Part shown: piece after piece, positions 11,149-45,719 of the stretch
Position numbering within the stretch: the first letter of the stretch is position 1
Layout: every line of letters starts with the position of its first letter
Assembly (NCBI GenBank): GCA_015665315.1
Contig: JADFAK010000021.1
Coordinates: 454 to 64,453 of the forward strand
Source: Flavobacteriales bacterium
GTDB lineage: Bacteria; Bacteroidota; Bacteroidia; Flavobacteriales_D; Sanyastnellaceae
DNA length: 64,000 nucleotides
Direction: 5' to 3'
Position numbers and translations under genes: made by a program
The notes under the pieces: model-generated
The model's input: the letters and a program-made list of their open reading frames with translations, nothing else
Told to the model about the DNA's origin: nothing
The model's database searches: none

Positions 11149-11310
11149 TCTCGCTCTCTGAACTGTCTATAATTCTCGCTTCTCGTTCTCGCACTCTATG
11201 CTGTCTATAATTCTCGCCTCTCGCTCACACACTCTATACTGTCTTGAATTCTCGCTTCTCGCTCTCGTACTCTATACTGTCTTCGCTTCTCGCTCTCTAT
11301 TCTGTCTTTA
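11149..11310. repeat. Tandem array of about 38-bp TCTCGC-rich units (4-5 copies)
   Basis: Units such as ttctcgcttctcgttctcgcactctatgctgtctataa repeat head to tail. The last unit overlaps the stop codon of the 11308-15264 gene. Confidence 0.8.
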
Positions 11311-14300: not shown

Positions 14301-15264
14301 CGTTAAAAAGACCATTTTGACCGAAATCTTGAGCTGGCGAACCTGAGGTAAGTTGATAATTATTGCTGCCGGGGTCTTCAAATAGAGGATCTTGATCCAG
14401 CACGTCTCCAATTGTATAATTAAGTGAATTTTGGATAATATCAAGAACACAATTGTCGATTTCCCCACTGGGAGAGCCGAATGGATTGTGCATGTCGTTG
14501 TCCCAGATAATGTCGTTGTAGGCTATAAACAGGCTGGTACTATGTCCGCCGATAACCGACCCAAATGTTTGTTCAAATTTGTTTTGGGATAAGGTGCAAT
14601 TATAGATTTTGGCTACGGCGTTCACATTAAGATCTATGATTCCACTTATGTCGGTCGTGTTGTCGTGCACCAGGCAATTAACCATGATGAGATAGGTGTC
14701 TGTTAGTCCTCCTACGGCGGGTCCCGCTAGTGCTAGGTTATTGTATATCGTGCAGTTTACTAGATCCATACTGGCACCGTCGTCCATATAGACTCCACCA
14801 CGTGGATAAAATACATCGGTAAATTCTCGGTAAGCTTTTTTAATGCCAAATCCGTCGACGACAATATTAGAACCATGTGCGAAAATCACATTGTATGAGT
14901 TGTCAGCCGCAGTTGATTGACTGCCTATTGCTCCAGAAAGTTCAGTGACATTGGTTGCCCAGTCCCTTTGATCTCTTTGTGTTTCTGTACCATCAAAACC
15001 GCCGTATAACTCAATACCAGAATTGATATCGAATCGAATATCTCGATCGGTCGTTGTAGTTGGCTTGTAAATTCCTTCAGCCACCCATATTTCATCGTTG
15101 GCTCCAGCTACAGCCAGGGCATCTTGTAAATCGGTAAATGCGTTATTCCAGGATGCGCCTGAGTTGGTACCTGTGGCGTCTTTGTCGACGTAAATAACAG
15201 CCGCTTGACTTGAAAAGGTGAGGGTGCAGGCCAGTACCCAAAGTAGTAGGTTGCGTGTATTCAT
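11308..15264 (-). CDS. Secreted right-handed beta-helix repeat protein with a dockerin-like C-terminus
   Basis: Signal peptide. Three tandem copies of a roughly 325-aa unit that starts YVDxxATGxNxGSSWxxAFxDLQDAL...IWVAxGxYKPT. Then long Asn/Gly/Thr-rich helix turns, a Cys-containing beta-sandwich-like domain and a double dockerin-like module (11311-11475). Confidence 0.8.
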   Translation of the reverse strand: MNTRNLLLWVLACTLTFSSQAAVIYVDKDATGTNSGASWNNAFTDLQDALAVAGANDEIWVAEGIYKPTTTTDRDIRFDINSGIELYGGFDGTETQRDQRDWATNVTELSGAIGSQSTAADNSYNVIFAHGSNIVVDGFGIKKAYREFTDVFYPRGGVYMDDGASMDLVNCTIYNNLALAGPAVGGLTDTYLIMVNCLVHDNTTDISGIIDLNVNAVAKIYNCTLSQNKFEQTFGSVIGGHSTSLFIAYNDIIWDNDMHNPFGSPSGEIDNCVLDIIQNSLNYTIGDVLDQDPLFEDPGSNNYQLTSGSPAQDFGQNGLFNENLDLAGQPRVWNTVIDAGCYEMQTDRRLYVDLTATGENDGSSWNNAFVDLQDALSFSNSGDQIWVAQGVYKPTTSTDRNINFQLGSGVSLYGGFIGNESFRGQRDWNENKTILSGAIGVIGDITDNSYRILVVQGTNTLVDGFEFRYAYRDVNDNNNLSGAIYMNTATELDIRHCDIRFCTANTQAAVFVGPNSHLSMDNCLVRQNNNDGGSIVYVGTNAIASIFNSTFSQNIFEQSYGSVIGGTSFGSAEVYNSIIWDNDDHKAFGSTPITADKVILDVYQSSAINVIGDTLMQSPLFADVAAGDFSLLPTSPAIDYGSNAYSSLNLDLAHEQRIWNGTADVGCFEYYSSNTLYVDQDATGANDGSSWQDAFVDLQDALAVFSPGNEIWVAEGTYFPTSTNDRSITFDIPDDCALYGGFQGNEILHSQRDWSANPTVMSGNIGTAASTDNSYRLIDLAAAGVIILDGLIISDGYADGSGSNNNSAAMRVVSTQVNLANCTFTGHYANFAGAFFFQSGSEIYADNCIFEDITAGATAVVLASAGSDLHVSNSSFINNTSGGSGGAVSTNGLFDFTNTLFQGNVAATSGAALILNTGSAGTISECVFSDNTATSLGSTLTIIGATAEISNSIFENNTGGTITGAMDIYSGTSVVENCLFYQNTSNTNAALRVLNQATSEIINCTFTENIATSGSGTSLTIDGAGGEFTNCIVWNNFSTYNVQFGAGNIIPSHCIIEGGATGTSIFDCNPNFLDPSAGNFKISANSQAYNSGLNSASNLLTDLAGNQRIYLSTVDMGCFEAQVCEVPHDECADFILLQVNEDPSFGSNECASQANGPISSCSVSTGRTVWYGFTAPATGSVEIVTSEVNMLTPIFNMRLTAFSGNCESLNEIACVDNYGDETAETLELSGLNPGSNYRVRLDGVGTQEASFKIQVIETTAAGCLGDFNGDMVIDTNDLLQLLSGFGCQSSCTVDLTDDDMVDTTDLLLFLSVFGTACN

Positions 15265-24006: not shown

Positions 24007-26388
24007 ATGAAGAAATTCAACTTATTTTTATTGTTCGCATTGTCTGTCATTTGCGCGCAGTCGCAGTTAAACCTGACCTACCAGGGCAACATTACCTACA
24101 ATCAAAACTTGAGTGATATATGGGGCTACGCGGCGCCGGATGATCATGAGTACGCCATAGTGGGTGTTTACAACGGAGTGTCGATCGTAGATTTAGCTGA
24201 TCCGACAAACCCGACAGAATTATTTTTCTTGAATGGGTTGGGAACGACTTGGCGCGATATTAAAACGTGGGGAGAATATGCCTATGTGACCAATGAGGAA
24301 GGAAATGGAGTTGAAGTGATTGACTTGAGCGACCTGCCAAATTCGGTGGAGTCATTCAACTGGACGCCTAATATTCCGGGGTCTGGAACGCTTTCAACTT
24401 GCCACAATATTTGGATTGATGAATTCGGATACGCCTACCTCACCGGTTGCAATGTGAACAATGGTGGAATGGTGTATGTCGACGTGTTTACGAATCCTGG
24501 TCAGCCCGAATACGTTGGCAAAGGCCCCGCGGTTTACGCCCATGATGTGTATACGGCCAATAACTTGGCCTACACCTGTGAAGTCTATGACGGCGTATTT
24601 GGTATTTACGATGTGACAGATAAATCGAGTACCGTCTTTTTGGGAAATCAAGTCACAACTGGGGAATTCACGCATAACTGCTGGCTTTCGGACGATGGGA
24701 CAATTCTCTATACTACGGATGAACAGCCGAATTCGCCGGTAGGATCTTACGATGTGAGTGATCCAACTAACATTATTCACTTGGATGACTTTCTACCGTA
24801 TGAAACGTTGGGAACAGGCGTAGTTCCGCACAATGTCCATGTATGGGAAGATTGGTTGATTATATCTTATTACACTGATGGCTGTATTTTGGTTGACGGT
24901 TCGAATCCAACCAACTTAATTGAGGTAGGTAATTTCGACACATTTATTCCTCAGAGTTCGGGATTTAGCGGCGCTTGGGGAGCATATCCGTATTTGCCTT
25001 CTGGCTTGGTACTGATCTCCGATATTGGCAATGGAATGTATGTGTTGGAGCCCAATTACGTGAATGCATGTTGGCTCGAAGGCGAAGTCACGGACGAATC
25101 TACTGGACTCGCTCTGAGTGGTGCAAGCATCGTTATCGAGTCGACCAATGTAGCAGATCAGAGTAATATTGGTGGAGATTACGCCACGGGATATGCGATC
25201 TCCGGAACCTACGATGTGACCTATTCCAAGGCGGGATATATTCCCCAGACAATTGCAGTTGATATCGAAAACGGTGAAATTGTTATCGTTGACGTAGCGC
25301 TTAGTCCGCTCAACGCCTTCTCCATTGGGGGAACAGTAGTCGACGAAAATTCGGGTGATCCGATTCCTTTTGCAACTGTTCGTATTGTGAACGAGGATTT
25401 CGACTATGAGTTAACTACCGACGATGCTGGAGCGTTTACATTGAATACTTTCTTTGAAGGGGAATATGATGTGATCGCTGGAAAATGGGGGCATCACACG
25501 GCCTATATCAGTGCCGAGCAAATCGACGAAGGAAATGCCTCTCTCACTATTGAAATTGCCGAAGGATACGAGGATATTTTCTCATTGGACCACGGTTGGA
25601 ATACCTTCTTTAGCGGATATACCGGCGAGTGGGAGATTGGAACGCCTATAGGTGTTGTAGTTCCAGATGTAGAGCAATTAATCACTCCTGAATTTGATGT
25701 TCCTGAAGATTTAGGGAATCACTGTTACGTAACAGGAAATGATGCCGATTTTTTCAACGGCGTACTTATTGGAGGTGATGCTGGTCTGACCAGTCCGGTA
25801 ATGGATTTAACGAGTTATGACGCGCCATTTTTGCACTACTATGTTTGGTATTTGAATGTCGATGTAGATCAAGGCAATCCTGGATTTGACGACATGATTG
25901 TGACGATGTCCGACGGTTTTCAATCGATGCCAATTGACACCGTTCCATTTGAGAATTTCTCACAGTTGGGGTGGGCATTGCGATCGGTTGATTTGTCGCA
26001 ATTTATGCCTATGACGGGAAACATGACGATTTCATTTACATGTTCGACACCGGGAAGCTTTACCTATGTTTCGGAGGCGGCGATAGATTACTTTTTAATC
26101 ACCGATGGTAATCCGAATGGAGTAGCCGAAGTGATGAGTGAAATCCTGTTGACGGCAGCTCCAAACCCATCTACTTCGGAGTTTGTGATTAACTACAAGC
26201 TTGAGCAATTTGGATCAACATCAGTCATCCAAGTTTTTAATGCGATGGGGCAGTTGGTCCACCATGAGAGATTGACATCAAAGAGCGGTAGGATTGTGAT
26301 AGGGGAAGACTTTGTAGGCGGAATGTATGTCGCACGAATTGTCAGCGAAGGAAACGTGAGTAAGTCGATCACGCTTATCAAGAACTAA
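24007..26388 (+). CDS. LVIVD-repeat beta-propeller protein with CarboxypepD_reg-like domains and a T9SS C-terminal sorting domain
   Basis: Signal peptide, YAYVTNEEGNGVEVIDLSD-type LVIVD repeats and two GxVxDxxTGxPLxGAxV-like domains. The tail ...APNPSTSEFVINY...GMYVARIVSEGNVSKSITLIKN is a T9SS type-A CTD. Confidence 0.75.
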   Translation: MKKFNLFLLFALSVICAQSQLNLTYQGNITYNQNLSDIWGYAAPDDHEYAIVGVYNGVSIVDLADPTNPTELFFLNGLGTTWRDIKTWGEYAYVTNEEGNGVEVIDLSDLPNSVESFNWTPNIPGSGTLSTCHNIWIDEFGYAYLTGCNVNNGGMVYVDVFTNPGQPEYVGKGPAVYAHDVYTANNLAYTCEVYDGVFGIYDVTDKSSTVFLGNQVTTGEFTHNCWLSDDGTILYTTDEQPNSPVGSYDVSDPTNIIHLDDFLPYETLGTGVVPHNVHVWEDWLIISYYTDGCILVDGSNPTNLIEVGNFDTFIPQSSGFSGAWGAYPYLPSGLVLISDIGNGMYVLEPNYVNACWLEGEVTDESTGLALSGASIVIESTNVADQSNIGGDYATGYAISGTYDVTYSKAGYIPQTIAVDIENGEIVIVDVALSPLNAFSIGGTVVDENSGDPIPFATVRIVNEDFDYELTTDDAGAFTLNTFFEGEYDVIAGKWGHHTAYISAEQIDEGNASLTIEIAEGYEDIFSLDHGWNTFFSGYTGEWEIGTPIGVVVPDVEQLITPEFDVPEDLGNHCYVTGNDADFFNGVLIGGDAGLTSPVMDLTSYDAPFLHYYVWYLNVDVDQGNPGFDDMIVTMSDGFQSMPIDTVPFENFSQLGWALRSVDLSQFMPMTGNMTISFTCSTPGSFTYVSEAAIDYFLITDGNPNGVAEVMSEILLTAAPNPSTSEFVINYKLEQFGSTSVIQVFNAMGQLVHHERLTSKSGRIVIGEDFVGGMYVARIVSEGNVSKSITLIKN

Positions 26389-34069: not shown

Positions 34070-34168
34070 GAAAAGTGGCACATTGGGGAAAGATTAGTAA
34101 AATTTTCCTATCTTGTCTAAACCATTACATTGAATCATATTACTGATTCGAACATTAAACTTTATACC

Positions 34169-34426
34169 ATGACTAACTTATGCATGGCCATTTTTATGGC
34201 CCTTGTTTTAGGTTCACAAGGTGAGCCTTCAGCTACATCGCTGGACGCGATGCTCTGTCCCTACGATCTCAATGGCGACGGGGTTGTTAATAACCCAGAT
34301 TTATTGCTGTTTCTTTCCAAATATGGCCAAGTAGGCGTGTACGATCAGGATTTTGACGGCAATGGCTCAGTAGGAATTACAGATTACATTGAGTTTATGC
34401 GTTACAAAGGAGGTGTGTGTCCATGA
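34169..34426 (+). CDS. Stand-alone dockerin/EF-hand-like mini-protein, cassette 1 (A1)
   Basis: 85 aa: a hydrophobic N-terminus MTNLCMAIFMALVLGSQG, then CPYDLNGDGVVNNPDLLLFLSKYG and DQDFDGNGSVGITDYIEFMRYKGGVC. 80% identical to A2 (68/85 by hand count). Confidence 0.65.
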   Translation: MTNLCMAIFMALVLGSQGEPSATSLDAMLCPYDLNGDGVVNNPDLLLFLSKYGQVGVYDQDFDGNGSVGITDYIEFMRYKGGVCP

Positions 34427-35307
34427 AAAAGATACTAGCTCTTTTAGCATTGGCGCTGATAAGCGCGGGTGCTAGTTCGCAAGTTGTTCAAATTTGGTTA
34501 GTCCCAGACACGGTGTATGTCGATGAATATGTCGGCGACTTTGAAACTGTGGAGGCAGGATCAGTTGTTTATGGATTTTATTTAGAAATGTTGCATGCCG
34601 ATGATGTTGTGTCGACCATTTACGGGGATGCAACAAATCCACTCGTTCTTGAGACAACGACGAGTTTTTTCACCACTATATTGGGGCTTGCGCCATCTCC
34701 GTCGAACTATGATTTATTCACTTCAATTGCTCCCGAACTTGGGTCGAGTACATATTTGACAATTACGGGTGAGGAGGAAACGTGTATTGACAATAGCATC
34801 TTATTGCTGTCAAATTCAGATAACCCATGGACGGATGAGCTGTTGCTTGGGCAAAGTGCTTTTGTGGATGATATAATTGGCGGTGGTTGGGGCGTGGAGC
34901 CCATCTTTTACCCTGCTTGCACTCCTGCTGGCGAAGACCACATGTATAGAATAGGGCAATTTACTACCACGGGTGTATTTTCGGGTGTAATCAATGTGCA
35001 GACCTTCATTCATGGAGTTCAGCTGGATTATTCGTTGGATACAGGATTGGTCTTTGGACCCGATAATATAGCGGAATTGGGATGTATGGATCCGGAGGCG
35101 ATGAACTACGATTCGAGTATTTTGTTTGGTGATGACTCTTGTTTGTATTTAGGTGACTTAAACGGCGACGGCGAGGTAAATACAGGTGATGTGCTTAACT
35201 TTTTAGGGGCATATGGGTGTGAAGTCGACTGTGGACCGGCCGACATGAATGGCGATGGAGTTGTCAACGCGCAGGATCTACTGATTTTATTGGGACAATT
35301 TGGATAA
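34423..35307 (+). CDS. Secreted protein with an unknown N-domain, one CNYD unit and a double dockerin-like C-terminus, cassette 1 (B1)
   Basis: The ATG overlaps the A1 stop (ATGA), with AAGGAGG 10 nt upstream. Signal peptide MKKILALLALALISAGASSQ. C-terminus CLYLGDLNGDGEVNTGDVLNFLGAYGCEVDCGPADMNGDGVVNAQDLLILLGQFG. Confidence 0.7.
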   Translation: MKKILALLALALISAGASSQVVQIWLVPDTVYVDEYVGDFETVEAGSVVYGFYLEMLHADDVVSTIYGDATNPLVLETTTSFFTTILGLAPSPSNYDLFTSIAPELGSSTYLTITGEEETCIDNSILLLSNSDNPWTDELLLGQSAFVDDIIGGGWGVEPIFYPACTPAGEDHMYRIGQFTTTGVFSGVINVQTFIHGVQLDYSLDTGLVFGPDNIAELGCMDPEAMNYDSSILFGDDSCLYLGDLNGDGEVNTGDVLNFLGAYGCEVDCGPADMNGDGVVNAQDLLILLGQFG

Positions 35308-35488
35308 AATGAAACGCCCTGATTTTGGTGATCGGACTATCAGGAACAAGGTGCTAGGCCTCTTGTTTATTGCACTTTCTTTGCAAAGCAACAAAGTGCA
35401 TGGCTTAAGATCAAGAATCTTAATTGGTAGTTTTAAAATTGATTTTTAGGTTCCTTTAATAGGGATGTTTTTTCTATGATGCAAACAT

Positions 35489-35496
35489 TAAATTTG
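35489..35496 (+). promoter_or_regulatory. Candidate -7 box (TAAATTTG) directly upstream of A2
   Basis: Exact TAnnTTTG match ending 5 nt before the ATG at 35502. This would imply a leaderless or nearly leaderless mRNA. Copy 1 has TAAACTTT instead. Confidence 0.3.
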
Positions 35497-35501
35497 ATAC
35501 C

Positions 35502-35759
35502 ATGACTAACTTATGCATGGCCCTTTTCATGGCCCTTGCTCTAGGTTCACAAGGTGAGCCTGAGGCTCCTTCGCTCGATGCGATGATCTGTCCCTATGAC
35601 TTCAACGACGATGGGATAGTTAACAACCAAGATCTCTTGATATTCCTAACAAAATATGGCCTAGTTGGAGACTTTGATCAAGATTTTGATGGAAATGGCT
35701 CGGTAGGGATTACCGACTATATTGAATTCATGCGTTATAAAGGATCGGCATGTCAATGA
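35502..35759 (+). CDS. Stand-alone dockerin/EF-hand-like mini-protein, cassette 2 (A2)
   Basis: 85 aa, paralogue of A1. Confidence 0.65.
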   Translation: MTNLCMALFMALALGSQGEPEAPSLDAMICPYDFNDDGIVNNQDLLIFLTKYGLVGDFDQDFDGNGSVGITDYIEFMRYKGSACQ

Positions 35760-36634
35760 AATCAATTGTCACATTAATTGGAGGAATGCTGCTTCTACTG
35801 GGCGTTCAAGGTCAAGTTACTCAGGTGTGGTTGGTGGTCGATACAGTTTATACCGAAGAGCAAGTAGGAACTTTTGGGACCGTAGAGGCCGGATCGGTCG
35901 TGTATGACCTGTATTTAGAGCTGATGCATAGCGATGATAAGGTCTCTACGATGTATGGAGATACTACTCATCCCATGCTCATCGAGACAACTACAAGCTT
36001 TTTCGTCGCTGCTGAGCTAGGCATCGCGCCGAATAACTATGAACTTATGTCCTCCCTGTTTCCTGAAATACGGGCATCCACGCGCGTTGGAGTGAACAAT
36101 GACCAAAGTGAGTGTAGCTCTCAGAATATTTATTTGATCAGTTCAGAACAAAATGATTGGGTTGCCAATTTGAACGATGGTCAGTCCGTGAATCTGGACG
36201 ATTTCATAGGAGGTGGATGGGGAGTTGAGGCGTATGCCGACCAGGGATGCAATGAAGCTGGCGACGACCTATTGGTTTGGATAGGACGGTTCACTACAAC
36301 CGGTGTTTTTTCGGGAGTTCTGAATGTACAGTCTTTTATCCATGGAATTCCCCTTGATTATGATTTGGCCGAGGATCTACCCTTTGGGCCGGATAGCATA
36401 ACCGAATTCGGGTGTACCGATTCTACGGCCGGAAATTACAATCCCAATGCACAATTGGACGATGGAAGTTGCGCTGCTTTGGGAGATCTCAATGGCGATG
36501 GGATGATAGACATCGACGACCTTCTTGATTTTTTAGGATCATTTGGATGTGCGGATGATTGCGGGCCCGTCGACTTGAACGACGATGGCATTGTAAATAT
36601 CCTCGACTTGTTGATCCTTCTTGGAATGTTATAA
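35756..36634 (+). CDS. Secreted protein with an unknown N-domain, one CNYD unit and a double dockerin-like C-terminus, cassette 2 (B2)
   Basis: The ATG overlaps the A2 stop (ATGA). Colinear with B1, sharing blocks TVEAGSVVY, ETTTSFF, IGGGWGVE, FTTTGVFSGV and NVQxFIHG. Confidence 0.7.
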   Translation: MKSIVTLIGGMLLLLGVQGQVTQVWLVVDTVYTEEQVGTFGTVEAGSVVYDLYLELMHSDDKVSTMYGDTTHPMLIETTTSFFVAAELGIAPNNYELMSSLFPEIRASTRVGVNNDQSECSSQNIYLISSEQNDWVANLNDGQSVNLDDFIGGGWGVEAYADQGCNEAGDDLLVWIGRFTTTGVFSGVLNVQSFIHGIPLDYDLAEDLPFGPDSITEFGCTDSTAGNYNPNAQLDDGSCAALGDLNGDGMIDIDDLLDFLGSFGCADDCGPVDLNDDGIVNILDLLILLGML

Positions 36635-36638
36635 AAAT

Positions 36639-36679
36639 GAAACGCCCTGACATCGGTGGCGATTCCGTCAGGGCGTTTC
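36639..36679. terminator. Bidirectional terminator hairpin (13-bp perfect stem)
   Basis: gaaacgccctgac-N15-gtcagggcgtttc between convergent B2 and the 36701-38404 gene. Only the left arm is present after B1 (35311-35323). Confidence 0.65.
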
Positions 36680-36700
36680 TCGTTAGCTATAGTAATTAAT

Positions 36701-38404
36701 TTACTGAGCGATATCAATACATGCTTGTCCAAACACACCAAGGAACATAAGCAAGTCGGTGGTGTCTCGAACTCCGTCTCCATTCATATCTCCGAGACAA
36801 GGAACTACATAAGAGCAAGAACCGTTGTCGTGCGTCGCAAAAGGATTGTAGTTCACTGCTGTCGGATCCGTACATCCAATAAAGACACATGAGCCATCCT
36901 CAATCGTGGCCAATGGATCGTAGTTAGCAGCACCTATATACGTACAACCGGCTGCGGAACCTTGGCACGAACCATCGTCAAAAGCTGCACAAGAATTGTA
37001 GTTGGCAGCACCTTGATCAGTACACCCAATTCCTGGAACTTGACATTGATAGACGAGCGAAGCTTGACCGCAACTTTGTCCGCCCTCAGTTCCCAATGAA
37101 ATCGTGTAGGCTATATCAAAGAAGCTGTCTACAGTGAATCCATCCGGTGAGGGAAGAGCGCTCAAAAGGCCGGTACCCGGACCAGCGCCTGGATTTGGTT
37201 GAATTTGAATCGGACCTAAAGGTGAAGCTCCGCCCAAAGTCATCTCCATAATTTCTAGGTCGTAGTACTGTGCACCTAGTGGATCAGAATAAGGCGTTGG
37301 AATGACCATGGTCTGCATGAATCCGTTTCCTTGAACTTCATCGGCGACCAATTCACCCCCAATGTAGATGTCAAAGAAGATGTCAAAAAATGAATCGACG
37401 AAGAAAGGTTCGCTACCAGGATTGAAAAGTGGAACTGGAGGTCCTATGTTGTGGATTCTAACATTCTGGATAGACATGATGTCGGCATTCGCAGGATCGA
37501 GATTCACGAAGTTCCAAGGAGTAGGGTTGATCCACAAACCTTCGGGAAGTACAGTTGGGTTTTCAACTACAACACCTGGAAATAGGATTGGAGTATCTGT
37601 CATATAAAAATGCAATCCACACCCATCGCTGCATCCACAGCCTACATATACACCCCCCACTTCTTCTTCCGCTTCAGGTTCGGTGGTATTGGTTGGCTTG
37701 TAGTAGGTAATAGTGACCGTAAGCTTCCCTGCGCCAATTTTGGCGTCTACAATTGCTTGAGCGGCCGTCTTGTCGGTAGTGGCAGGAGCTGGATCCCGGT
37801 TGTGTGGAGGTTCTTCGGTCCAACTGCCGTCGGAATTCAAACAGTCCTGTGCTGCCTTGACATCGGCTTTGGTCGCTCCTCCACCTTCTACAGGAGTAAG
37901 AGTGTAACACGCCTGCGAAGTAGCTAAATCGGTAAAGCCGTTGGCTGACGATCCAGCGCCAAGTGCGTCTTCGATCTTATCGCACAAAGAAGTGTCATCG
38001 CCATCGGCACCATCTGGGTCTTTTTTCGACCAGCACGTACAAAAGTCGACTTTGATGTTTTCCAGTTCGTCGAAACCATCGGGAACCGGCATTTCATCTT
38101 CTCCGTCTCCGAAGCCGTAGTAGTATCCGTTACCCCATTTAAATCCCTCTCCACCATTGATACCATGGGCAACGATGACCAATTGGTCCCCGTCTTCCAA
38201 TTGCGCCAAGCAGTCGGTAAGCGATCCTCCCACCTGGATCACCGTGTCGTCGTCGGCATTCTGACGTTCCCATCCTTCATGGGCGTTCAAAAAACCGTCT
38301 CCTCCAGAGTCAATGCAAACGATTTTTTTGGCATCGACATTCAGAGAGAGTAGTAAAAACAAAATTAAGCTGTTGAGTGAAATGATTGTTCTAAGATTTT
38401 TCAT
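36701..38404 (-). CDS. Secreted Cys-rich protein with three CNYD units and a single dockerin-like C-terminal unit
   Basis: Signal peptide and repeated DSFFDI motifs. Contains GCTDQGAANYNSCAAFDDGSC, CTYIGAANYDPLATIEDGSC and CTDPTAVNYNPFATHDNGSC, then CLGDMNGDGVRDTTDLLMFLGVFGQAC. Confidence 0.7.
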   Translation of the reverse strand: MKNLRTIISLNSLILFLLLSLNVDAKKIVCIDSGGDGFLNAHEGWERQNADDDTVIQVGGSLTDCLAQLEDGDQLVIVAHGINGGEGFKWGNGYYYGFGDGEDEMPVPDGFDELENIKVDFCTCWSKKDPDGADGDDTSLCDKIEDALGAGSSANGFTDLATSQACYTLTPVEGGGATKADVKAAQDCLNSDGSWTEEPPHNRDPAPATTDKTAAQAIVDAKIGAGKLTVTITYYKPTNTTEPEAEEEVGGVYVGCGCSDGCGLHFYMTDTPILFPGVVVENPTVLPEGLWINPTPWNFVNLDPANADIMSIQNVRIHNIGPPVPLFNPGSEPFFVDSFFDIFFDIYIGGELVADEVQGNGFMQTMVIPTPYSDPLGAQYYDLEIMEMTLGGASPLGPIQIQPNPGAGPGTGLLSALPSPDGFTVDSFFDIAYTISLGTEGGQSCGQASLVYQCQVPGIGCTDQGAANYNSCAAFDDGSCQGSAAGCTYIGAANYDPLATIEDGSCVFIGCTDPTAVNYNPFATHDNGSCSYVVPCLGDMNGDGVRDTTDLLMFLGVFGQACIDIAQ

Positions 38405-38640: not shown

Positions 38641-40800
38641 CTAGCATTGTGTGCCAAAAAGACCAAGGAAAATAAGTAGGTCGCTGGTGTTGGCTATGCC
38701 GTCGTTATCCAAGTCAAATGCACAAAAATCCACGCAGCCGATGCCGCCGAGAAAGCTCAGCAAGTCAACGGTGTCAACGGAATTGTCGTTGTTGAAGTCG
38801 CCCAAACACCCTGCGGATTGCAGATTAAGGATCTGGGTTGAGGCATGACTTCCGCAGCTATTTGACACCGTGAGCATGACGTCGAATTGTCCGGCCGCAG
38901 CGTAATCGTAAACCGGAGAACTACTGGTGTTCAGGGCCGAAGCATCACCAAAATCCCACGCGTATGTCAAAGGCCAGCCCATCGGATTTCCTGAACTTTG
39001 ATCGGTGAAACTTACTTGAAGTCCGTTTGTGACATAAGTGAAATCCGACGTTGGTGACTGACCGAAATCACCGTTGCCTGGATCGGGAAAAGCAGGGTTT
39101 ATTTGTGAGCCATTGAGGTCAAAACCCAATCCTTGCCAGCTAGCAAAATTCATCGATTGCCAGGGGTTCGTAGGTTGGAATGGTAAGGCAATGGACGGAC
39201 TCCAATAGGTGTTGTAGTCGATTTGATAATTCACGCTGAAATCACCGTACATATGTGTGGTGTTGGAGGTGGCGTCGGTGTAGAATAGATTGTGGTAAAA
39301 GTATCCCTGTTGTCCGCTTATTACACTTACCGCATCGTGTGGCATTGTCGCTGGGGTGTAAAATTTATTTCTGTAAACGCGGTATTGTACATCGGTGTCG
39401 AGAATGTAGATATCGTTGATGGGGTTATTGAAGAAGTGATTGTCTCTAATGGCGACATCTTTGACGCTGTATCCGAAGACCCCAAAACCTTGGTTTCCTG
39501 TGGTGAGATCATGAATTTGACAATTTTGAACGATCGCTTTTCTGAAGTGTCCGGTGTTATCGTTGTTGCCATTGCTGAAGTCGATTCCGTTGTTGGTGCC
39601 TGTGATGTCACAACCATCTATGAGACAATATTCAAAGTCTTCTTGGTAGCTGGGCGCGTTCATGTTCAGACAAAAATTCCGATTGACTGATTGTCCGAAT
39701 GTGACCCAGCGAATGACGGTATGATCGCAGTGGTTGATATACATGTGGTGATCGAGAAGTGCGTTGCCGTTTCCACCATCAAAATGTCCGCCGATGACTG
39801 CTACATATGGATTGTCGGCGGGTACAAAGCTTTGTTTCGCCGTTTGATTAGCGTGGAAATCACATTCCCAAACGAGGAAGGCTTGCTTCGTACCTGAGCC
39901 TGTCGTGATGATCAACCCTTCGTTGTTGCCATTTTGCAAGGTGCAATCGGCGAATACCATACGCTCGACGCTTCCGGAAGGATCAGCATAGGCGAAGAAC
40001 AAGGCTCCACTCACGTTGTTTCCATCAAAGACTAAGTCTTGGTATACATGATCGGTAACATTCTGATTTGTGCCATTTAGAAAAATCGTGCGGCTGGCGG
40101 ATAATCCTGAATTGGTCATTAAAACAGGATCACTTCCTACACCATAGGCTCCCATGCGTATTCCCGATTTTTTCGTGGTCAAAGTCGCAGAGACATCAAC
40201 GGTCGTCCCGCGCTTGAACAATACGCGTCGGTTATTGCCTCCGTTGATCCACGAGATGGCCTGCGTCCAAGTTTGCCAAGGCGTCGCCACAGAAAGCCCA
40301 TCGTTGAGGTCATCCCCAGAAATAGGGTCGACGTAACGATCTTGTCCGCTCCAAGCCGAAATAGTCACAGATTTAGAAGTTGAGGTCGAGATGTAATTGG
40401 AGCCGTCCCACCCGCGAACGGTGAGCGTAATCTGATAAGTCCCCGGCGTCTCATACAAATAGCACGCTTCCGGTCCGCGTTGGTCCGTGTTGGCCGATTG
40501 AACCATGCCATCGACCGGGTGCGCTATGGTGCCTTGGCCCGTGGGAGAATTGTCTCCAAAATCCCAGGAATATTCCAGATCGTAGTAGGGTTCGAGGGTT
40601 CCGACTGCCGTGGTTTGGAAGGCCGAAACATAAATGGCGACCGGAGCTTCACCCGCTGAATCTGGATAGTGAATCTGTGGGGAAATGGAAGAAATTGTCA
40701 CTTCAGAATTGCCGCCAAACCCATTTCCTGGACAAGAAGGAATTTGAGCGATTGCGACCCCAAAGGTCATTAGAAATAGAAGGGTTAGTAGCTGTCTCAT
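38641..40800 (-). CDS. Secreted PKD-domain / right-handed beta-helix protein with a double dockerin-like C-terminus
   Basis: ATG at 40800 gives the signal peptide MRQLLTLLFLMTFGVAIAQ. Two PKD-like domains (YSWDFGDNSP..., YAWDFGDASA...) flank a beta-helix core. C-terminus CLGDFNNDNSVDTVDLLSFLGGIGCVDFCAFDLDNDGIANTSDLLIFLGLFGTQC. Confidence 0.75.
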   Translation of the reverse strand: MRQLLTLLFLMTFGVAIAQIPSCPGNGFGGNSEVTISSISPQIHYPDSAGEAPVAIYVSAFQTTAVGTLEPYYDLEYSWDFGDNSPTGQGTIAHPVDGMVQSANTDQRGPEACYLYETPGTYQITLTVRGWDGSNYISTSTSKSVTISAWSGQDRYVDPISGDDLNDGLSVATPWQTWTQAISWINGGNNRRVLFKRGTTVDVSATLTTKKSGIRMGAYGVGSDPVLMTNSGLSASRTIFLNGTNQNVTDHVYQDLVFDGNNVSGALFFAYADPSGSVERMVFADCTLQNGNNEGLIITTGSGTKQAFLVWECDFHANQTAKQSFVPADNPYVAVIGGHFDGGNGNALLDHHMYINHCDHTVIRWVTFGQSVNRNFCLNMNAPSYQEDFEYCLIDGCDITGTNNGIDFSNGNNDNTGHFRKAIVQNCQIHDLTTGNQGFGVFGYSVKDVAIRDNHFFNNPINDIYILDTDVQYRVYRNKFYTPATMPHDAVSVISGQQGYFYHNLFYTDATSNTTHMYGDFSVNYQIDYNTYWSPSIALPFQPTNPWQSMNFASWQGLGFDLNGSQINPAFPDPGNGDFGQSPTSDFTYVTNGLQVSFTDQSSGNPMGWPLTYAWDFGDASALNTSSSPVYDYAAAGQFDVMLTVSNSCGSHASTQILNLQSAGCLGDFNNDNSVDTVDLLSFLGGIGCVDFCAFDLDNDGIANTSDLLIFLGLFGTQC

Positions 40801-40903
40801 GGGTGCTTTTCTAATTTGGTAAGTGAACTGGTTTCTGTGTAGCGCACTTGTCCGCAAGAAGAATTCTCCTAACAAGACTAGCGCGCAGGCCTAATTGTTG
40901 CAA

Positions 40904-42811
40904 CTATTCAATAATAATTTTGTGCGCTTTAACTCTATCTCGATTTTGAATGGTGAGAATGTATAAGCCTTCGGCAAATGAGGAAACGTCTAGCGAAAGT
41001 TCGGAGTCACTCGTGGCACTTGACCAAAGGACTTGCCCCCTGGTGTTTCTTAATTCAAGCTTGTCTTTTCCCGAAGGATTCGTCCTATTGATGTGTAGCA
41101 CCTTGGAGCATGGATTGGGAGAAATGGTTAATTCTGATAAATCAAGGTCATCGATTTCTGACACCAAGAAATAGTAACAATTTGAGATCGCTACACAGTT
41201 TTCATAGCTTATTTCAACGGCATACAGCCCATCTTCGTCAGGTGTGAAAGTCGTTCCATATCCCACGATTCCATCGGAGACATCACATTCCCACCACGTG
41301 TAAGTATCTCCATCGGTGTAGTCAACGACTAACATGCCGTTCGACTCGCTTACTGTTGGATTGACTGTGCAATCTTGGAAGAAGGAGATGATGCATGCCG
41401 ACATACCAGCACCTGATGAGCTGAGCATTAGCTGCTCTTCTGTAGGGTCAACATCTTGGATTCCGCCGATGCCACCTCCCAGGGCGAATCGACCGTTTTG
41501 ATTGAAAGTAATGCTTGAATAAGTACTTTCAAGGTCACCAATGGTGGCACCGGAGAATTGGTGGTTGCCCAATTCGTCGTACAGGGCGACATAGGCGTTC
41601 TTGTTGACCGCGGTGGGTAAGGTGTTGCTTGGATCATTTGGGTCGAAACTGGCCTCTTGTGAGTTGTATTGTCCGGCAATTACCACTTGGTCTTCACCAT
41701 AATACCGAACCACCGAAGCATAGTCGTTGCCTACGCCCCCCATGCTGTTTACCCAAGCCAATTCACCTTGGTAATTGAATTTGGCCAGGAAGATATCGGG
41801 ATGGGCGCTTACTGGAGCTTTCTGCAGAATATTCGGACTTGGATCAAAATCAACCAGCCCAGTATATTCTCCTAGGAGGTAAACGTTGTTTTCGGTATCG
41901 ATGGTAACCGACTTTCCATATTCTTGTGATCCATCTGACCCCAGTACGTGAGCCCACGAGAGTGCCCCATTGGAGTCGTATACGGCTACGAAAATATCTT
42001 GGTATCCCACGGGAGTCAAGGTCGTATTGCCGATGCCTGGATCGAAGTCGGTTGCGTCGAAGATATATCCCGTGACAGCAACAGAGCCATTCGAACTCAC
42101 GGAAATATCAAAACACTCGTCGGTTGAGGCACTTCCAAGTGCAAAGGCCCACTGGAGGTCACCTACCACATTGTACTTGGCCACAAATCCATCAACGTAG
42201 TTTGCCGCGACCAGGTATTCTCCAACAGGATCAGGATCGAAGTCGACTGTCCCGCTGAATGTTCCGCATACATAAATATTATTGGAGTTGTCACGGGCAA
42301 GGGCCGAGATGAAATCGTTGCCCGATCCACCAAAGCTAAAGCTTGAAACATAGTCTCCGTCATCTGAGTAATTAACCACTACGGCATCTCGACCTCCCTG
42401 TGTTGTGTGAAAGTTGGAGTCAGAACTGGGGTTGAAATCGGTGTTGTCGGTAAAATACCCAACGGCCGTTACGCCGTTTTGGGCAAACTCGATGTCTGTG
42501 AATTCAGTATTCGCATTCGAGCCTATTCCAAATGACCACACATGCTCTCCGGATTCGTTGTATTTTGCCACAAAGGCATCTGTAAATCCGTTGGCATTCA
42601 CATTGCTTTGTCCTAGGCCTGGGTCGAAATCTGCAGGTGTGGATGAGAATTTTCCAACGGTGTAGAAATTATTACTGTAGTCTGAAATCAGACCATTGAC
42701 TTGGTCGTTTTGTGAGCCTCCAAAGGTGATTCCAAAATCGATGTAAGGAGTTTGGGCTGGCAGATTAAGAAAGCCAATAAACATACATGTGAGGAGTAAA
42801 GCGTTTTTCAT
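40904..42811 (-). CDS. SBBP-repeat beta-propeller protein with a T9SS C-terminal sorting domain
   Basis: Repeated ...D.F(V/L)AKYN..G...W... units. The tail ISPNPCSKVLHINRT...GLYILTIQNRDRVKAHKIIIE is a T9SS CTD. Confidence 0.75.
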   Translation of the reverse strand: MKNALLLTCMFIGFLNLPAQTPYIDFGITFGGSQNDQVNGLISDYSNNFYTVGKFSSTPADFDPGLGQSNVNANGFTDAFVAKYNESGEHVWSFGIGSNANTEFTDIEFAQNGVTAVGYFTDNTDFNPSSDSNFHTTQGGRDAVVVNYSDDGDYVSSFSFGGSGNDFISALARDNSNNIYVCGTFSGTVDFDPDPVGEYLVAANYVDGFVAKYNVVGDLQWAFALGSASTDECFDISVSSNGSVAVTGYIFDATDFDPGIGNTTLTPVGYQDIFVAVYDSNGALSWAHVLGSDGSQEYGKSVTIDTENNVYLLGEYTGLVDFDPSPNILQKAPVSAHPDIFLAKFNYQGELAWVNSMGGVGNDYASVVRYYGEDQVVIAGQYNSQEASFDPNDPSNTLPTAVNKNAYVALYDELGNHQFSGATIGDLESTYSSITFNQNGRFALGGGIGGIQDVDPTEEQLMLSSSGAGMSACIISFFQDCTVNPTVSESNGMLVVDYTDGDTYTWWECDVSDGIVGYGTTFTPDEDGLYAVEISYENCVAISNCYYFLVSEIDDLDLSELTISPNPCSKVLHINRTNPSGKDKLELRNTRGQVLWSSATSDSELSLDVSSFAEGLYILTIQNRDRVKAHKIIIE

Positions 42812-42851
42812 GGGATTAGCATTTGATTGATTAATAAAATCTGGTCAACAA

Positions 42852-42859
42852 CAAAGTTA
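42852..42859 (-). promoter_or_regulatory. Candidate -7 box (TAACTTTG on the minus strand) for the SBBP/PKD/Cys-rich gene string
   Basis: Exact TAnnTTTG match about 40 nt upstream of the ATG at 42811. No clear -33 element. Confidence 0.3.
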
Positions 42860-43111
42860 TTTCGATGAAGTGCCGAATCATTCATGGCATAGCGGGATTT
42901 TAAACTCCCTGAAAACCATGAGAAGAATATGTTTTAGACCATGATTATATCCATGTTTTCATGGAAGAGATTCTATTGTGAAAAATCGATATTTGTAGAT
43001 CAGACCAACAGGAAGTCCACCTTGAATCATATCAAAAACACGTATTTACCGCAATCTTATCCTAGATGCAATGTTGGGCCAGTCCGGTCTGGACGCGCAA
43101 TAGAGGGAGTA

Positions 43112-45043
43112 ATGCTGGCTGTGCTGACGTTCCTGAGTATATCGCTTTTGGGGCAGGATTTATCTTCTTTAGAGAGAATCCAACAACTGAGCGATTCAGC
43201 CTGGGCCTTGGAGGCATCCCAGCCTAGAAAGGCCATCGAAATGTACGACCGGGCAATCGACCTTAGCTCGTTGTCGAATCAGGACCTCGAGAAAGGAAAG
43301 AATATGCGCTACAAAGCCTTGTTGTACAAGGAGATTTTGTCATTGGATACTGCCCTTCATTGGATGGAGAAAGCCGATTCGGTTCTAACTCTTTGTTCGG
43401 ATTCTGTGCAGATTGCCAAGGTTAAATTTAGCTTGGCCACCATCCATCAATTCAAAGGAAATGCAGGAGCGGCCGCGCGGTTCTATAGTCAGTCACTCCA
43501 TGTTTTTACCGACTTACGAGATACGCTATCGGTCTCAAAATGCGCATCCAACTTGGGGGTCTTGTATTACGAATTGAGTATGTACGACCAGGCCGAACGC
43601 TATGATTCCATCGCAGTTTCTTTGGCGCGCTTGAGCGAACAAAATGAAAGTTTATGTTCCTCCTTGATCAATTGGGGAATTGCCCAAGCCGCTCTCGGCA
43701 AGTCGGAAAGCGCAGTTGAGAAATACCGTGAAGCACTCGTACTAGCAATTGACTTGGGAGATCAACGACTTGTATCCTACGCTCACACCAATTTGGCCGA
43801 TTACTTTGCCAATCAAGGTCAGTATGAACAGGCCATACTCAATTCGGCCGAAGCACTGGAAATCGCGCGGGCAACCGAGAATGAAATTGAAGAGGCCTTC
43901 TTTCTTCACCAGCTGGGGTACTTTTATGAGAAGTCTAATCGATCGGGCGGACTTCAAATGATGGAAGAGGCGCTAGCACTGAATCGGAAGTTGGGCTTGC
44001 GCGCCGACCGTCTGCCGCTGTTGAAGCACTTGTCGCAAGTGTATGCCGATCGAAGTGATTATAAGTCGGCCTATATTCATGCACAAGAATTGATGGAACT
44101 CAAGGACTCAATTGGCTCTGAGTCAACGATGCAACTGGTTAACGATTTACGGGTGCAGTACGAAGCTGCCGAAAAGGAAAAGGAAAATGAGCAGTTAAAA
44201 CACTCCCGTGTACTGGATGCTATTCAATTTGAAGAAGGCCAGACACGCATGGTTTTGATCATCGCTGTCCTGGTTTTGTTGTTGGCCTTGAGCATGTTTG
44301 GTGTATGGAGCTACCGATCGAAGTTAAAGTCGAAAACCATCATCGCCGAGCAGGAACGGCAATTGAATGAGCAGAGAATAGAAGAGCTGAGAAATAAACA
44401 AACCATCCAATCTCTGGACGACATGTTGCAAGGTCAGCAAGAAGAGAGGCAGCGCATTGCCAATGATTTACACGATGGTTTGGGTGGGTTGTTGTCGACT
44501 ATTCAACTTCATTTTGGCCGTATTCAAGAAGAACTCGATTCCATGAAAAGATTGGACGCCCACAGCGCTGCATTTAATCTACTGGACGAAGCATGTAAGG
44601 AAGTCCGCAAAATCGCGCACGACATGATGCCTAGCTCCTTGGAGAAATTGGGTTTATTCTCGGCGACCACGGATTTATTGACTCAACTGCAGGCGGGTTC
44701 GAAGATTGAGGTGATTCCGCAGCAGTTTGGGGATGCGGTAAACTTGCAAGCTGGCAAGGCGACCATGATCTATCGGATTATCCAAGAGGTCATAGCCAAC
44801 GTGGTAAAGCATGCGAATGCAAAACAGATTATCGTTCAATTCAATTGGCACCCAGATTCATTGCATATTGTCATCGAAGATGATGGCCAAGGATTCGATT
44901 TTGAGCGTGTGAAAAAAGGGCTTGGACTCAAAAGCATAGATTCACGGGTGAAATACATGGGCGGAAATTGGGAAATTGAGTCAAGTGTGGATCATGGGAC
45001 AGCCATCAATCTGACATTTCCATATCAAAACATCCAGGAGTAA
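43112..45043 (+). CDS. TPR-repeat sensor histidine kinase (HisKA_3/NarX-type)
   Basis: N-terminal signal/TM segment, a long TPR-like region and one TM helix. H-box ERQRIANDLHDGLGG and an HATPase_c domain (VANVVKHANA...DDGQGF...GLGLKSIDSRV). The start is uncertain (42941-43112). Confidence 0.75.
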   Translation: MLAVLTFLSISLLGQDLSSLERIQQLSDSAWALEASQPRKAIEMYDRAIDLSSLSNQDLEKGKNMRYKALLYKEILSLDTALHWMEKADSVLTLCSDSVQIAKVKFSLATIHQFKGNAGAAARFYSQSLHVFTDLRDTLSVSKCASNLGVLYYELSMYDQAERYDSIAVSLARLSEQNESLCSSLINWGIAQAALGKSESAVEKYREALVLAIDLGDQRLVSYAHTNLADYFANQGQYEQAILNSAEALEIARATENEIEEAFFLHQLGYFYEKSNRSGGLQMMEEALALNRKLGLRADRLPLLKHLSQVYADRSDYKSAYIHAQELMELKDSIGSESTMQLVNDLRVQYEAAEKEKENEQLKHSRVLDAIQFEEGQTRMVLIIAVLVLLLALSMFGVWSYRSKLKSKTIIAEQERQLNEQRIEELRNKQTIQSLDDMLQGQQEERQRIANDLHDGLGGLLSTIQLHFGRIQEELDSMKRLDAHSAAFNLLDEACKEVRKIAHDMMPSSLEKLGLFSATTDLLTQLQAGSKIEVIPQQFGDAVNLQAGKATMIYRIIQEVIANVVKHANAKQIIVQFNWHPDSLHIVIEDDGQGFDFERVKKGLGLKSIDSRVKYMGGNWEIESSVDHGTAINLTFPYQNIQE

Positions 45044-45053
45044 AGTAAAAGCG

Positions 45054-45719
45054 ATGACCAGAGTGTATATTGTAGACGATCATTCCTTATTTGCCGAAGG
45101 CTTGAAAAGTATGCTTTCAAAGACGAAGAGTATTCACGTTGTAGGTATGGCCTCGGATGCTGCTAGCGCGATTGAGTCTATCGATGGCGCTGATGTTGAT
45201 GTGGTCTTGCTCGATGTTAATTTACCCGATCGTGATGGTGTACATGTGTGTTCTGAGCTGCTTTCTAGGTTTCCTTCGCTAAAAATTATTGCGCTCAGTA
45301 TGCATTCTGAGGCAAGTATTATTGCTAGCATGGTAGAAGCTGGAGCCCTGGGCTACGTGCTTAAAAATGCCAAGTCAGAAGAACTTCTTGAAGCCATTTC
45401 GTGCGCCATGAAGAACATGAAGTATTTCAGCAAGGAGGCATCGAATAATCTGATATTCAAGTTGATGGGCACAGGCGGTGCCACTTCAAAAAGCACACAA
45501 AAGCCAATGCTCACCAGACGGGAAAAAGACGTTTTGTACCTCATTATGAAGGAGCACACTACCACAGAGATTGCCGAGAAACTCTTCGTAAGCCCGAGCA
45601 CGGTCGAAACACATCGCAAAAACTTATTGCAAAAACTCGAAGTCCGCAACGTCGTAGGATTGGCTCAAGCAGCCTTGGAATTTGATATTCTGGGCGACTA
45701 TCTTCCACCTTCTCAATAG
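45054..45719 (+). CDS. NarL/LuxR-family response regulator
   Basis: Receiver domain (VYIVDDH...DVVLLDVNLPDRDG) plus a C-terminal LuxR HTH (LTRREKDVLYLIMKEHTTTEIAEKLFVSPSTVETHRKNLLQKL). Confidence 0.85.
   Translation: MTRVYIVDDHSLFAEGLKSMLSKTKSIHVVGMASDAASAIESIDGADVDVVLLDVNLPDRDGVHVCSELLSRFPSLKIIALSMHSEASIIASMVEAGALGYVLKNAKSEELLEAISCAMKNMKYFSKEASNNLIFKLMGTGGATSKSTQKPMLTRREKDVLYLIMKEHTTTEIAEKLFVSPSTVETHRKNLLQKLEVRNVVGLAQAALEFDILGDYLPPSQ

Follow-up and report, generated by a model that had tools for sequence, protein, structure and literature searches.

Why would a marine-type bacterium encode, twice in succession, a protein that is little more than a dockerin-like module, directly ahead of a secreted protein that itself ends in dockerin-like segments? 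The question is raised by a tandem two-gene cassette in a 64-kb stretch (64,000 nucleotides, hereafter the window; G+C content 45%) of a Flavobacteriales contig, JADFAK010000021.1. Each copy of the cassette consists of a small gene, A (A1, A2), followed by a larger gene, B (B1, B2). A sequence-only reading of the window had placed the two copies here, with an 85-aa A and a B of about 290 aa, and these open reading frames (ORFs) were confirmed. That reading had also regarded A and B as a possible cognate pair, with A as adaptor or competitor. The functional tie between A and B was borne out by gene order and gene fusion, and the notion of a newly invented pair gave way to that of a split single-chain protein. 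There is good support for reading the cassette as a split gene that was duplicated afterwards and that belongs to an undescribed family of secreted, dockerin-bearing proteins.

Most of the related marine Flavobacteriales, which are uncultured, make the two parts as one secreted chain of approximately 350-380 aa. This chain comprises a signal peptide, a Cys-bracketed two-loop dockerin-like module corresponding to A, a linker of 9-13 residues, the B domain, a CNYD unit and a double dockerin-like tail. The fused form was identified in 12 cluster representatives at 50% identity (P0006, P0007, P0009 and nine more), in four Flavobacteriales-type contigs from metagenome-assembled genomes (MAGs; L011, L012, L024 and L090) and in nineteen marine metagenome loci retrieved with A1 peptides (L091-L109). 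In the more distant relatives P0006, P0007 and P0009 (357-375 aa), the A-like module is placed after the signal peptide and before the B domain, and in every fused homologue it ends 9-13 residues ahead of that domain. The fused proteins carry an acidic linker at the place where the split B proteins carry a hydrophobic signal peptide. Judged by these comparisons, A and B are the fission form of a single-chain family in which one polypeptide unites the two parts in unchanged order. The fusion of an A-like module to the B domain in most relatives argues, in the manner of a Rosetta stone, for a shared function of A and B.

The split arrangement was also observed outside the duplicated cassette. 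L001 contains a single A-B cassette with the ATGA overlap (83-88% identity), L002 encodes a 103-aa protein of signal peptide plus module that is followed by B after an 8-nt gap, and L151 encodes a 104-aa protein whose TGA overlaps the ATG of B. The A-B order first noted within the duplication is thus present in all three. L002 and L151 are just 41-46% identical to each other, with both ORFs intact; they form a clade of their own in a neighbour-joining tree of B domains, although their junction (...C-P-Q-stop overlapping the ATG) is similar to that of the window clade. The same tree groups B1 and B2 with the L001 B in a single clade, B1 being nearest to L001, and the duplication is therefore placed after the fission. 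The split cassette of the window was, in addition, assembled independently from another sequencing run (L150), which excludes a sequencing frameshift as its origin. We consider fission followed by duplication of functional genes to be highly probable.

Distant A-like modules were recovered solely through B-based and pattern searches; the word-indexed search with A matched A1 and A2 only, the L001 copy being hidden inside the A1 cluster. A profile search of MAG contigs was seeded on a generic dockerin loop, and most of its 80 loci were unrelated dockerin proteins. Tandem fused paralogues with the order dockerin-like, B, dockerin-like (approximately 351 and 358 aa) were observed in L099, L102, L103 and L107, where they fall into different clades of the B tree. 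These pairs represent an earlier and independent tandem duplication, and such events are therefore recurrent in the family. The fused contig L090 (PBNL01000050.1) is labelled 'Methanobacteriota archaeon'. It encodes a flavobacterial-type dockerin-like, B, CNYD and dockerin-like protein at 903-2324, its neighbours have C-terminal domains resembling those of the type IX secretion system (T9SS), and it is probably mis-binned.

Selection was analysed with Nei-Gojobori estimates of non-synonymous (dN) and synonymous (dS) divergence and with Fisher tests of synonymous versus non-synonymous changes. The dN/dS ratio was 0.10 for A1/A2 (dS 1.17), 0.06 for A1 and its L001 orthologue (dS 0.90) and 0.07 for A2 and the same orthologue (dS 1.49). 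Purifying selection was significant for the three copies (Fisher p <= 5e-13). This check, which the sequence-only reading had called for, gave ratios of 0.06-0.10 at a dS of about 1, and A is a real, selected, cargo-less dockerin-like gene. A1 and A2 share 68 of 85 residues (80%, as counted before), and B1 and B2 share 157 of 291 (54%, previously put at roughly half). The ratio for B1 and its L001 orthologue was 0.06; synonymous sites between B1 and B2 are saturated. With a dN of 0.11 for A1/A2 versus 0.41 for B1/B2, the earlier view that A is the more constrained partner holds in this clade. The leader peptide of A is conserved at 90%, the signal peptide of B at 35%. Within A, dS is 0.17 over the first 20 codons versus 2.66 over the remainder, and since the dS of codons 21-85 is about 2.7, recent gene conversion does not account for the higher conservation of A over those codons. 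The divergence of B2 peaks in residues 101-175, with 39% identity and a dN/dS of 0.24.

Protein A begins with a hydrophobic stretch (residues 1-18), and its single module is flanked by Cys30 and Cys84, which are predicted to clasp it through a disulfide. In A1, a helix-like stretch comes after each of the two EF-hand-type loops, D33-x-N-x-D-G-x-V-x-x-x-D44 and D61-x-D-x-N-G-x-V-x-x-x-D72. This corresponds to the dockerin type I motif of two segments, each a 12-residue loop with Asp or Asn at positions 1, 3, 5 and 12 and then a helix, the residues in A1 being D33/N35/D37/D44 and D61/D63/N65/D72. Pfam Dockerin_1 (PF00404, cut-off 22.9 bits) scored A1 at 21.3 and A2 at 20.0 bits, below the cut-off, and the match spans just 16 residues, in A1 those of the first loop only. 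NCBIfam NF041540 (dockerin_GC, cut-off 29 bits) scored A1 at 23.1 bits. The leader of A, MTNLCMAIFMALVLGSQG-E, combines a hydrophobic core with small residues at -3 and -1 and lacks a basic n-region; the A leaders of the split relatives L002 and L151 are classical.

In B1, a signal peptide (residues 1-19) precedes the B domain (20-220), which is followed by a CNYD unit of degenerate sequence (220-240) and by the double dockerin-like tail (243-294). B2 is built in the same way, its CNYD unit being canonical. The B leader, MKKILALLALALISAGASS-Q, was judged by eye to be a classical signal peptide. Among A1, A2, B1 and B2, only B1 passes the Dockerin_1 cut-off, at 28.3 bits, with B2 below it at 14.6 bits. 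B1 and B2 also score below the NF041540 cut-off (27.5 and 17.0 bits), and this model is still their best NCBIfam match. The tails of B1 and B2 contain two loop-helix segments, with the helices of B1 modelled at a predicted local distance difference test score (pLDDT) above 90. The L001 orthologue of B1 (P0004) is 83% identical to it. The CNYD unit, GC-T/M-D-x2-A-x-N-Y-D/N-x3-A-x3-DGSC, is approximately 21 aa long and usually stands directly after a B domain. It was observed in B1, B2, the proteins at 6788-10819 and 36701-38404 and many database proteins, with at least 27 copies in single giant proteins, and no Pfam or NCBIfam model matches it. The features of the cassette and its neighbours are collected in Table 1.

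Table 1. Positions of the A-B cassettes, their parts and relevant neighbouring genes in the window (HMM, hidden Markov model).
Feature	Positions	Strand	Basis
A1, 85 aa	34169-34426	+	ORF and translation; Pfam, NCBIfam, dN/dS
A2, 85 aa, A1 paralogue	35502-35759	+	ORF and translation
B1, 294 aa, predicted secreted	34423-35307	+	ORF; AlphaFold model; L001 orthologue
B2, 292 aa, B1 paralogue	35756-36634	+	ORF; local HMM match
B domain of B1, beta-sandwich	34480-35082	+	Local HMM match positions 1-201, E = 1e-82
B domain of B2	35813-36412	+	Local HMM match, E = 9e-77
Double dockerin-like C-terminal tail of B1	35149-35304	+	Pfam Dockerin_1, residues 243-289, 28.3 bits
Conserved 5' block, copy 1 (about -25 to +60 of A1)	34144-34228	+	Three-way alignment
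Conserved 5' block, copy 2	35477-35561	+	Three-way alignment; consensus match
Inter-cassette remnant hairpin CCTGAT...ATCAGG and small hairpin AACAAGG...CTTGTT, then TATT	35318-35367	+	Fold z = -1.7
13-bp G+C-rich hairpin between convergent B2 and 567-aa gene	36639-36679		-27.6 kcal/mol, z = -5.3
M36 fungalysin peptidase	6788-10819	+	NCBIfam 'T9SS-dependent M36' match, residues 28-432
Dockerin-like-tailed protein, Cys-bracketed, tail single or double	11308-15264	-	
Dockerin-like-tailed protein, Cys-bracketed, tail single or double	36701-38404	-	
Dockerin-like-tailed protein, Cys-bracketed, tail single or double	38641-40875	-	
Por_Secre_tail (T9SS, PF18962) protein	24007-26388	+	Pfam match
Por_Secre_tail (T9SS, PF18962) protein	40904-42811	-	Pfam match

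At the junction between the two genes, the stop codon of A overlaps the start codon of B within an ATGA in both copies (34423-34426 and 35756-35759), exactly as previously noted. An AAGGAGG heptamer, earlier interpreted as a Shine-Dalgarno sequence, is indeed present at 34407-34413 upstream of the B1 start. The corresponding position reads AAGGATC in copy 2 and AAGGGGG in the L001 orthologue, and the heptamer occurs 12 times in the window versus 6.8 expected, with no association with start codons. Coupling through this motif was rejected, as the heptamer is restricted to copy 1, where it represents Lys-Gly-Gly codons.

The 5' block, which covers the last 25 or so nt before A and about the first 60 nt of A itself, hardly varies between A1, A2 and the L001 orthologue (L001 111-195). 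Its conservation possibly reflects a regulatory constraint (promoter or leaderless start) or gene conversion at the edges of the repeat unit. The octamer TAAATTTG at 35489-35496 fits the Bacteroidota -7 consensus TAnnTTTG, with its end 5 nt away from the ATG of A2, and no in-frame start codon for A2 was found 5' of the ATG at 35502. It is a putative -7 box that would fit a leaderless or near-leaderless A2 start; this is a single consensus match before A2, and the window shows no enrichment of the motif. Scans for sigma-70-type promoters and terminators gave nothing meaningful.

Downstream of B, both copies share TAAAA(A)TGAAACGCCCTGA after the stop codon. This shared sequence, described earlier together with a 13-bp hairpin after copy 2, was recovered, as was the hairpin, which is strong and likely a bidirectional terminator for B2 and the 567-aa gene. 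Alignment revealed that the complete hairpin is also kept right after the single cassette of L001. The claim that copy 1 had entirely lost the right arm needs amendment: the left arm persists there together with a 6-bp remnant pairing. The inter-cassette hairpins could act as a weak terminator, with a fold that does not stand out significantly from those of shuffled sequences (z = -1.7). Given the saturation of synonymous sites, neither the shared 3' motif nor the 5' block is likely to be a neutral scar, and the duplication junction can hardly be read from the 3' motif as had been thought.

The B domain, for which no Pfam or NCBIfam model matches, belongs to a large family. Among 1.84 billion cluster representatives, its profile matched 2,585 proteins at E <= 1e-3 and 1,211 at E <= 1e-10. 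B-domain proteins were found in marine Flavobacteriales, other Bacteroidota and Planctomycetota, with up to five copies of the domain per giant surface protein. By eye, the typical architecture is a signal peptide followed by B domains and CNYD repeats, ending in a single Cys-bracketed dockerin-like segment or a T9SS-like tail; T9SS-type ends also occur on the B-domain proteins of L040 and L053. From such architectures, B is predicted to be an extracellular module of surface proteins. In Planctomycetota, either a PEP-CTERM-like tail or dockerin repeats come after the signal peptide and B. Many members (P0253-P0330) are just a signal peptide, B and a PEP-CTERM-like tail (...VPGPGALxLLGxAGLxGxRRRR), and such minimal forms would be cell-anchored single-B proteins. 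Genes for dockerin-like-ending proteins were observed directly upstream of genes for B-starting, T9SS-tailed proteins in L053 (4389-5240 and 5289-6320) and in L040 (19-3615 and 3669-7622), and dockerin-like and B units alternate in L013.

A first single-chain AlphaFold model of B1, built from 12 sequences, reached a pLDDT of 59, and its Foldseek matches mixed type II cohesins with generic Ig-like folds. With an alignment of 115 sequences, the model reached a pLDDT of 85.8 and a predicted template modelling score (pTM) of 0.72, and exhibited a beta-sandwich with inserted helices and a helical tail. About half of the top 50 Foldseek matches of this model in the PDB were cohesins. The best was 3kcp_A (E = 6e-4), an entry that also holds a dockerin, possibly inflating the match; 1zv9, 2y3n, 3fnk, 4wi0, 6kgf, 5k39 and 2b59 were among the others. 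These matches are suggestive of a fold related to the nine-stranded beta-sandwich jelly roll of cohesins, and as the nearest folds they provide a weak independent hint that the N-terminal domain of B could be the receptor for A, as the sequence-only reading had imagined. By sequence, every criterion failed, and B is not assignable to the cohesins.

Taken together, we favour an explanation in which a gene was split and duplicated and its two products re-associate, and we regard it as probable overall. An ancestral single-chain gene would have been cut at the linker in the window lineage, with A keeping the original leader, B acquiring a signal peptide of its own where the linker had been, and the two ORFs remaining coupled through the ATGA overlap. 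The split cassette would then have been duplicated in tandem before the divergence from the L001 organism, whose lineage would have lost the B2-type copy and kept the B1-type only; B2 would have diverged later, mainly in residues 101-175. A and B would be co-transcribed and translationally coupled, both would be exported via Sec and fold with Ca2+ and a disulfide clasp, and A would re-associate non-covalently with B, restoring the ancestral arrangement. The complex would join a Ca2+-dependent cell-surface or extracellular assembly and adhesion system of B domains, CNYD units and dockerin-like tails, and the dockerin-tailed proteins at 6788-10819, 11308-15264, 36701-38404 and 38641-40875 may belong to the same toolkit. 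That A physically binds B seems to us slightly short of an even prospect. The leading candidate for the contact, a cohesin-dockerin-like docking of A on the B domain, is more tentative and rather unlikely.

Other explanations were considered for the same observations. In one, B would be a new dockerin receptor class of an intermolecular cohesin-dockerin-type system. A would dock onto B domains carried by other molecules, as might the dockerin-like tails of further secreted proteins, the M36 peptidase among them; A would then serve as a cap, competitor or adaptor tuning assembly and would not just re-create the ancestral single chain. The prominence of cohesins among the Foldseek matches of the confident B model speaks for this, as do scaffoldin-like layouts, with up to five B domains in giant T9SS-ended proteins and B fused to PEP-CTERM-like anchors. 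At least seven dockerin-like modules are present in the 64-kb window, and the gene order in L053 and L040 and the alternating units of L013 are in keeping with it; the 'planctosome' hypothesis offers a conceptual precedent (PMC6461901). However, the structural scores lie in the twilight zone with no sequence link between B and cohesins, generic beta-sandwiches also appear among the Foldseek matches, and adjacency of dockerin-like module and B is limited to one subfamily, so that we hold this explanation to be doubtful. Somewhat less probable still is an independent function after the split, whereby A would be a free protein, Ca2+-binding or dockerin-like, whose partner is a third party, and its position next to B would reflect shared history and co-regulation. 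The conservation of A1/A2 (80%) versus B1/B2 (54%) would fit a partner other than the fast-changing B, and the N-terminal 20 residues of A are unusually conserved. Yet the A-B order and tight coupling are kept across lineages that are approximately 30-46% identical, and the majority state is the fused form with its constant short linker.

Two further explanations deny the cassette two separate functional products. If A were a decaying fragment, left by a frameshift, a nonsense mutation or an assembly error with only B functional, the fused form would be expected to be the commoner one, as it is, and the atypical A leader with no basic residue would be accommodated. Strong purifying selection on three copies of A contradicts decay, as do the identical split in both paralogues, L001, L151 and the independent assembly L150, and the bona fide signal peptide of B at a place where fused forms have none. 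A pseudogene or assembly artefact was thus rejected on dN/dS and the recurrent split, and the idea is highly improbable. Programmed -1 frameshifting or stop-start bypass at the ATGA could in principle remake a single A-B chain, given that B lies in the -1 frame relative to A with overlapping ORFs and that A AAA AAG stands just past the junction in copy 1. This A-rich run, 3' of the A stop, is missing from copy 2, L002 has an 8-nt gap and no overlap, and the product would hold the hydrophobic leader of B internally, unlike natural fused proteins. With no slippery site conserved between copies 1 and 2 and with the gap in L002, frameshift fusion was rejected, and it has the slightest chance of all these explanations.

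Several observations weigh against the favoured explanation of a split gene whose products re-associate, or against parts of it. B followed by a PEP-CTERM-like tail in many Planctomycetota indicates that B is independent of an adjacent dockerin, and a dockerin-like module stands directly before B in only 13 of 309 instances among the best 150 matches; many B proteins have no dockerin whatever. These observations count against B as a general receptor. No cohesin emerged when 11 B domains were scanned with Pfam at E up to 10 or when the B profile was run against PDB sequences, and hhalign of B against the CipA cohesin (sequence confirmed against 1aoh) returned a probability of 0.1%. The structural match of the B model to cohesins is weak, with template modelling scores of 0.33-0.41 and root-mean-square deviations of 7-10 A. 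The missing basic n-region of the A leader may speak against export of A. In the L002/L151 clade, A is no more conserved than B, and the neighbour-joining tree is compatible with one or two fissions.

Type I dockerins of cellulosomes (PF00404) resemble A and the B tail in their two tandem 12-residue EF-hand-like Ca2+ loops with helices, which form a module of approximately 55-60 residues, and resemble B in the placement of the module at the C-terminus of a secreted protein. A differs from them in being cargo-less, stand-alone, N-terminal in the fused relatives and below the Pfam cut-off. The setting also differs, as this is a T9SS-bearing member of the Bacteroidota and not a cellulolytic Firmicute; no cellulose link was found, and no recognisable cohesin (PF00963) was matched in those window proteins that were scanned with Pfam. 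An 'intramolecular clasp' has reportedly been described for some dockerins, and the Cys bracket of A resembles such a clasp. Cohesins, especially those of type II (1zv9, 2y3n, 3fnk, 2b59 and 3kcp), share with the B model the beta-sandwich, a similar size and an inserted helix, and like B they occur in multiple copies in large surface proteins. In contrast to B, which has approximately 200 aa and no sequence or profile similarity to them, they span approximately 150-170 aa.

Non-cellulosomal cohesin/dockerin assemblies are said to have been surveyed by Peer et al. in 2009. The window resembles such assemblies in that dockerin-type modules are borne by peptidases and other non-cellulolytic secreted proteins of aquatic bacteria, and in the proposed Ca2+-dependent surface assembly. 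One example is the 'planctosome' hypothesis, which proposes a non-cellulosomal cohesin/dockerin assembly in freshwater Planctomycetes (PMC6461901). Such models use Pfam-recognisable cohesins, whereas the candidate receptor here is an undescribed domain in a two-gene split form. NF041540, the best NCBIfam match of A1, B1 and B2, describes GC-type dockerin domain-anchored proteins with a C-terminal dockerin-type anchoring domain; it differs in that the scores here are 17-27.5 bits (<29), the modules are Cys-bracketed and the genome has 45% G+C. As in other Rosetta-stone pairs, the adjacent coupled genes A and B correspond to consecutive domains of one protein in relatives. Unlike in those pairs, both halves here are predicted to be exported, a second signal peptide was needed and the cassette was later duplicated.

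In the surroundings of the cassette, two types of C-terminal tail, dockerin-like and Por_Secre_tail (T9SS), were observed side by side within 64 kb. The T9SS tails, together with the labels of homologous MAG contigs, point to a host in the Bacteroidota/Flavobacteriales. The M36 peptidase contains seven CNYD units and a Cys-bracketed dockerin-like tail that replaces the T9SS sorting domain, and in the source genome this tail may be an alternative surface-targeting or anchoring device. The Pfam scan did not match PF18962 (Por_Secre_tail) in the A or B proteins, which do not classify as T9SS cargo by this measure. Downstream of its single A-B cassette, L001 has the same order as the window, with the 567-aa gene, a DEAD helicase and BipA. 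An indel of approximately 7 kb was observed beside the cassette: the block at 38641-45719 of the window is absent from the syntenic region of L001 (3043-3613), between the 567-aa gene and the DEAD-box helicase. This block encodes a PKD-dockerin protein, an SBBP/T9SS protein, a TPR histidine kinase and a LuxR-type response regulator.

Among aquatic Bacteroidota and Planctomycetota, secreted proteins commonly bear dockerin-type modules, most of which have, to our knowledge, no known partner. The question of the partner was left open in the 'planctosome' paper (PMC6461901). The present locus ties a dockerin-like module to one uncharacterised domain through fusion, conserved gene order and a weak structural resemblance to cohesins. 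Since nature has separated the two parts into proteins of 85 and 294 aa and provides two diverged versions, the binding idea can be tested directly and cheaply, including the cross-pairs A1/B2 and A2/B1. B could represent an unrecognised, widespread class of cohesin-like receptors (more than 2,500 clusters at 50% identity) and the missing partner of orphan dockerin-like modules, a prospect that we consider improbable. If it were true, the giant multi-B proteins with T9SS or PEP-CTERM tails would be scaffoldins, and the split A and B cassette would be the smallest native dockerin/receptor pair. Even without binding, the locus reveals a large new extracellular domain family that lacks a Pfam model, and it documents the fission of an exported protein, a rare event for which a second signal peptide had to evolve.

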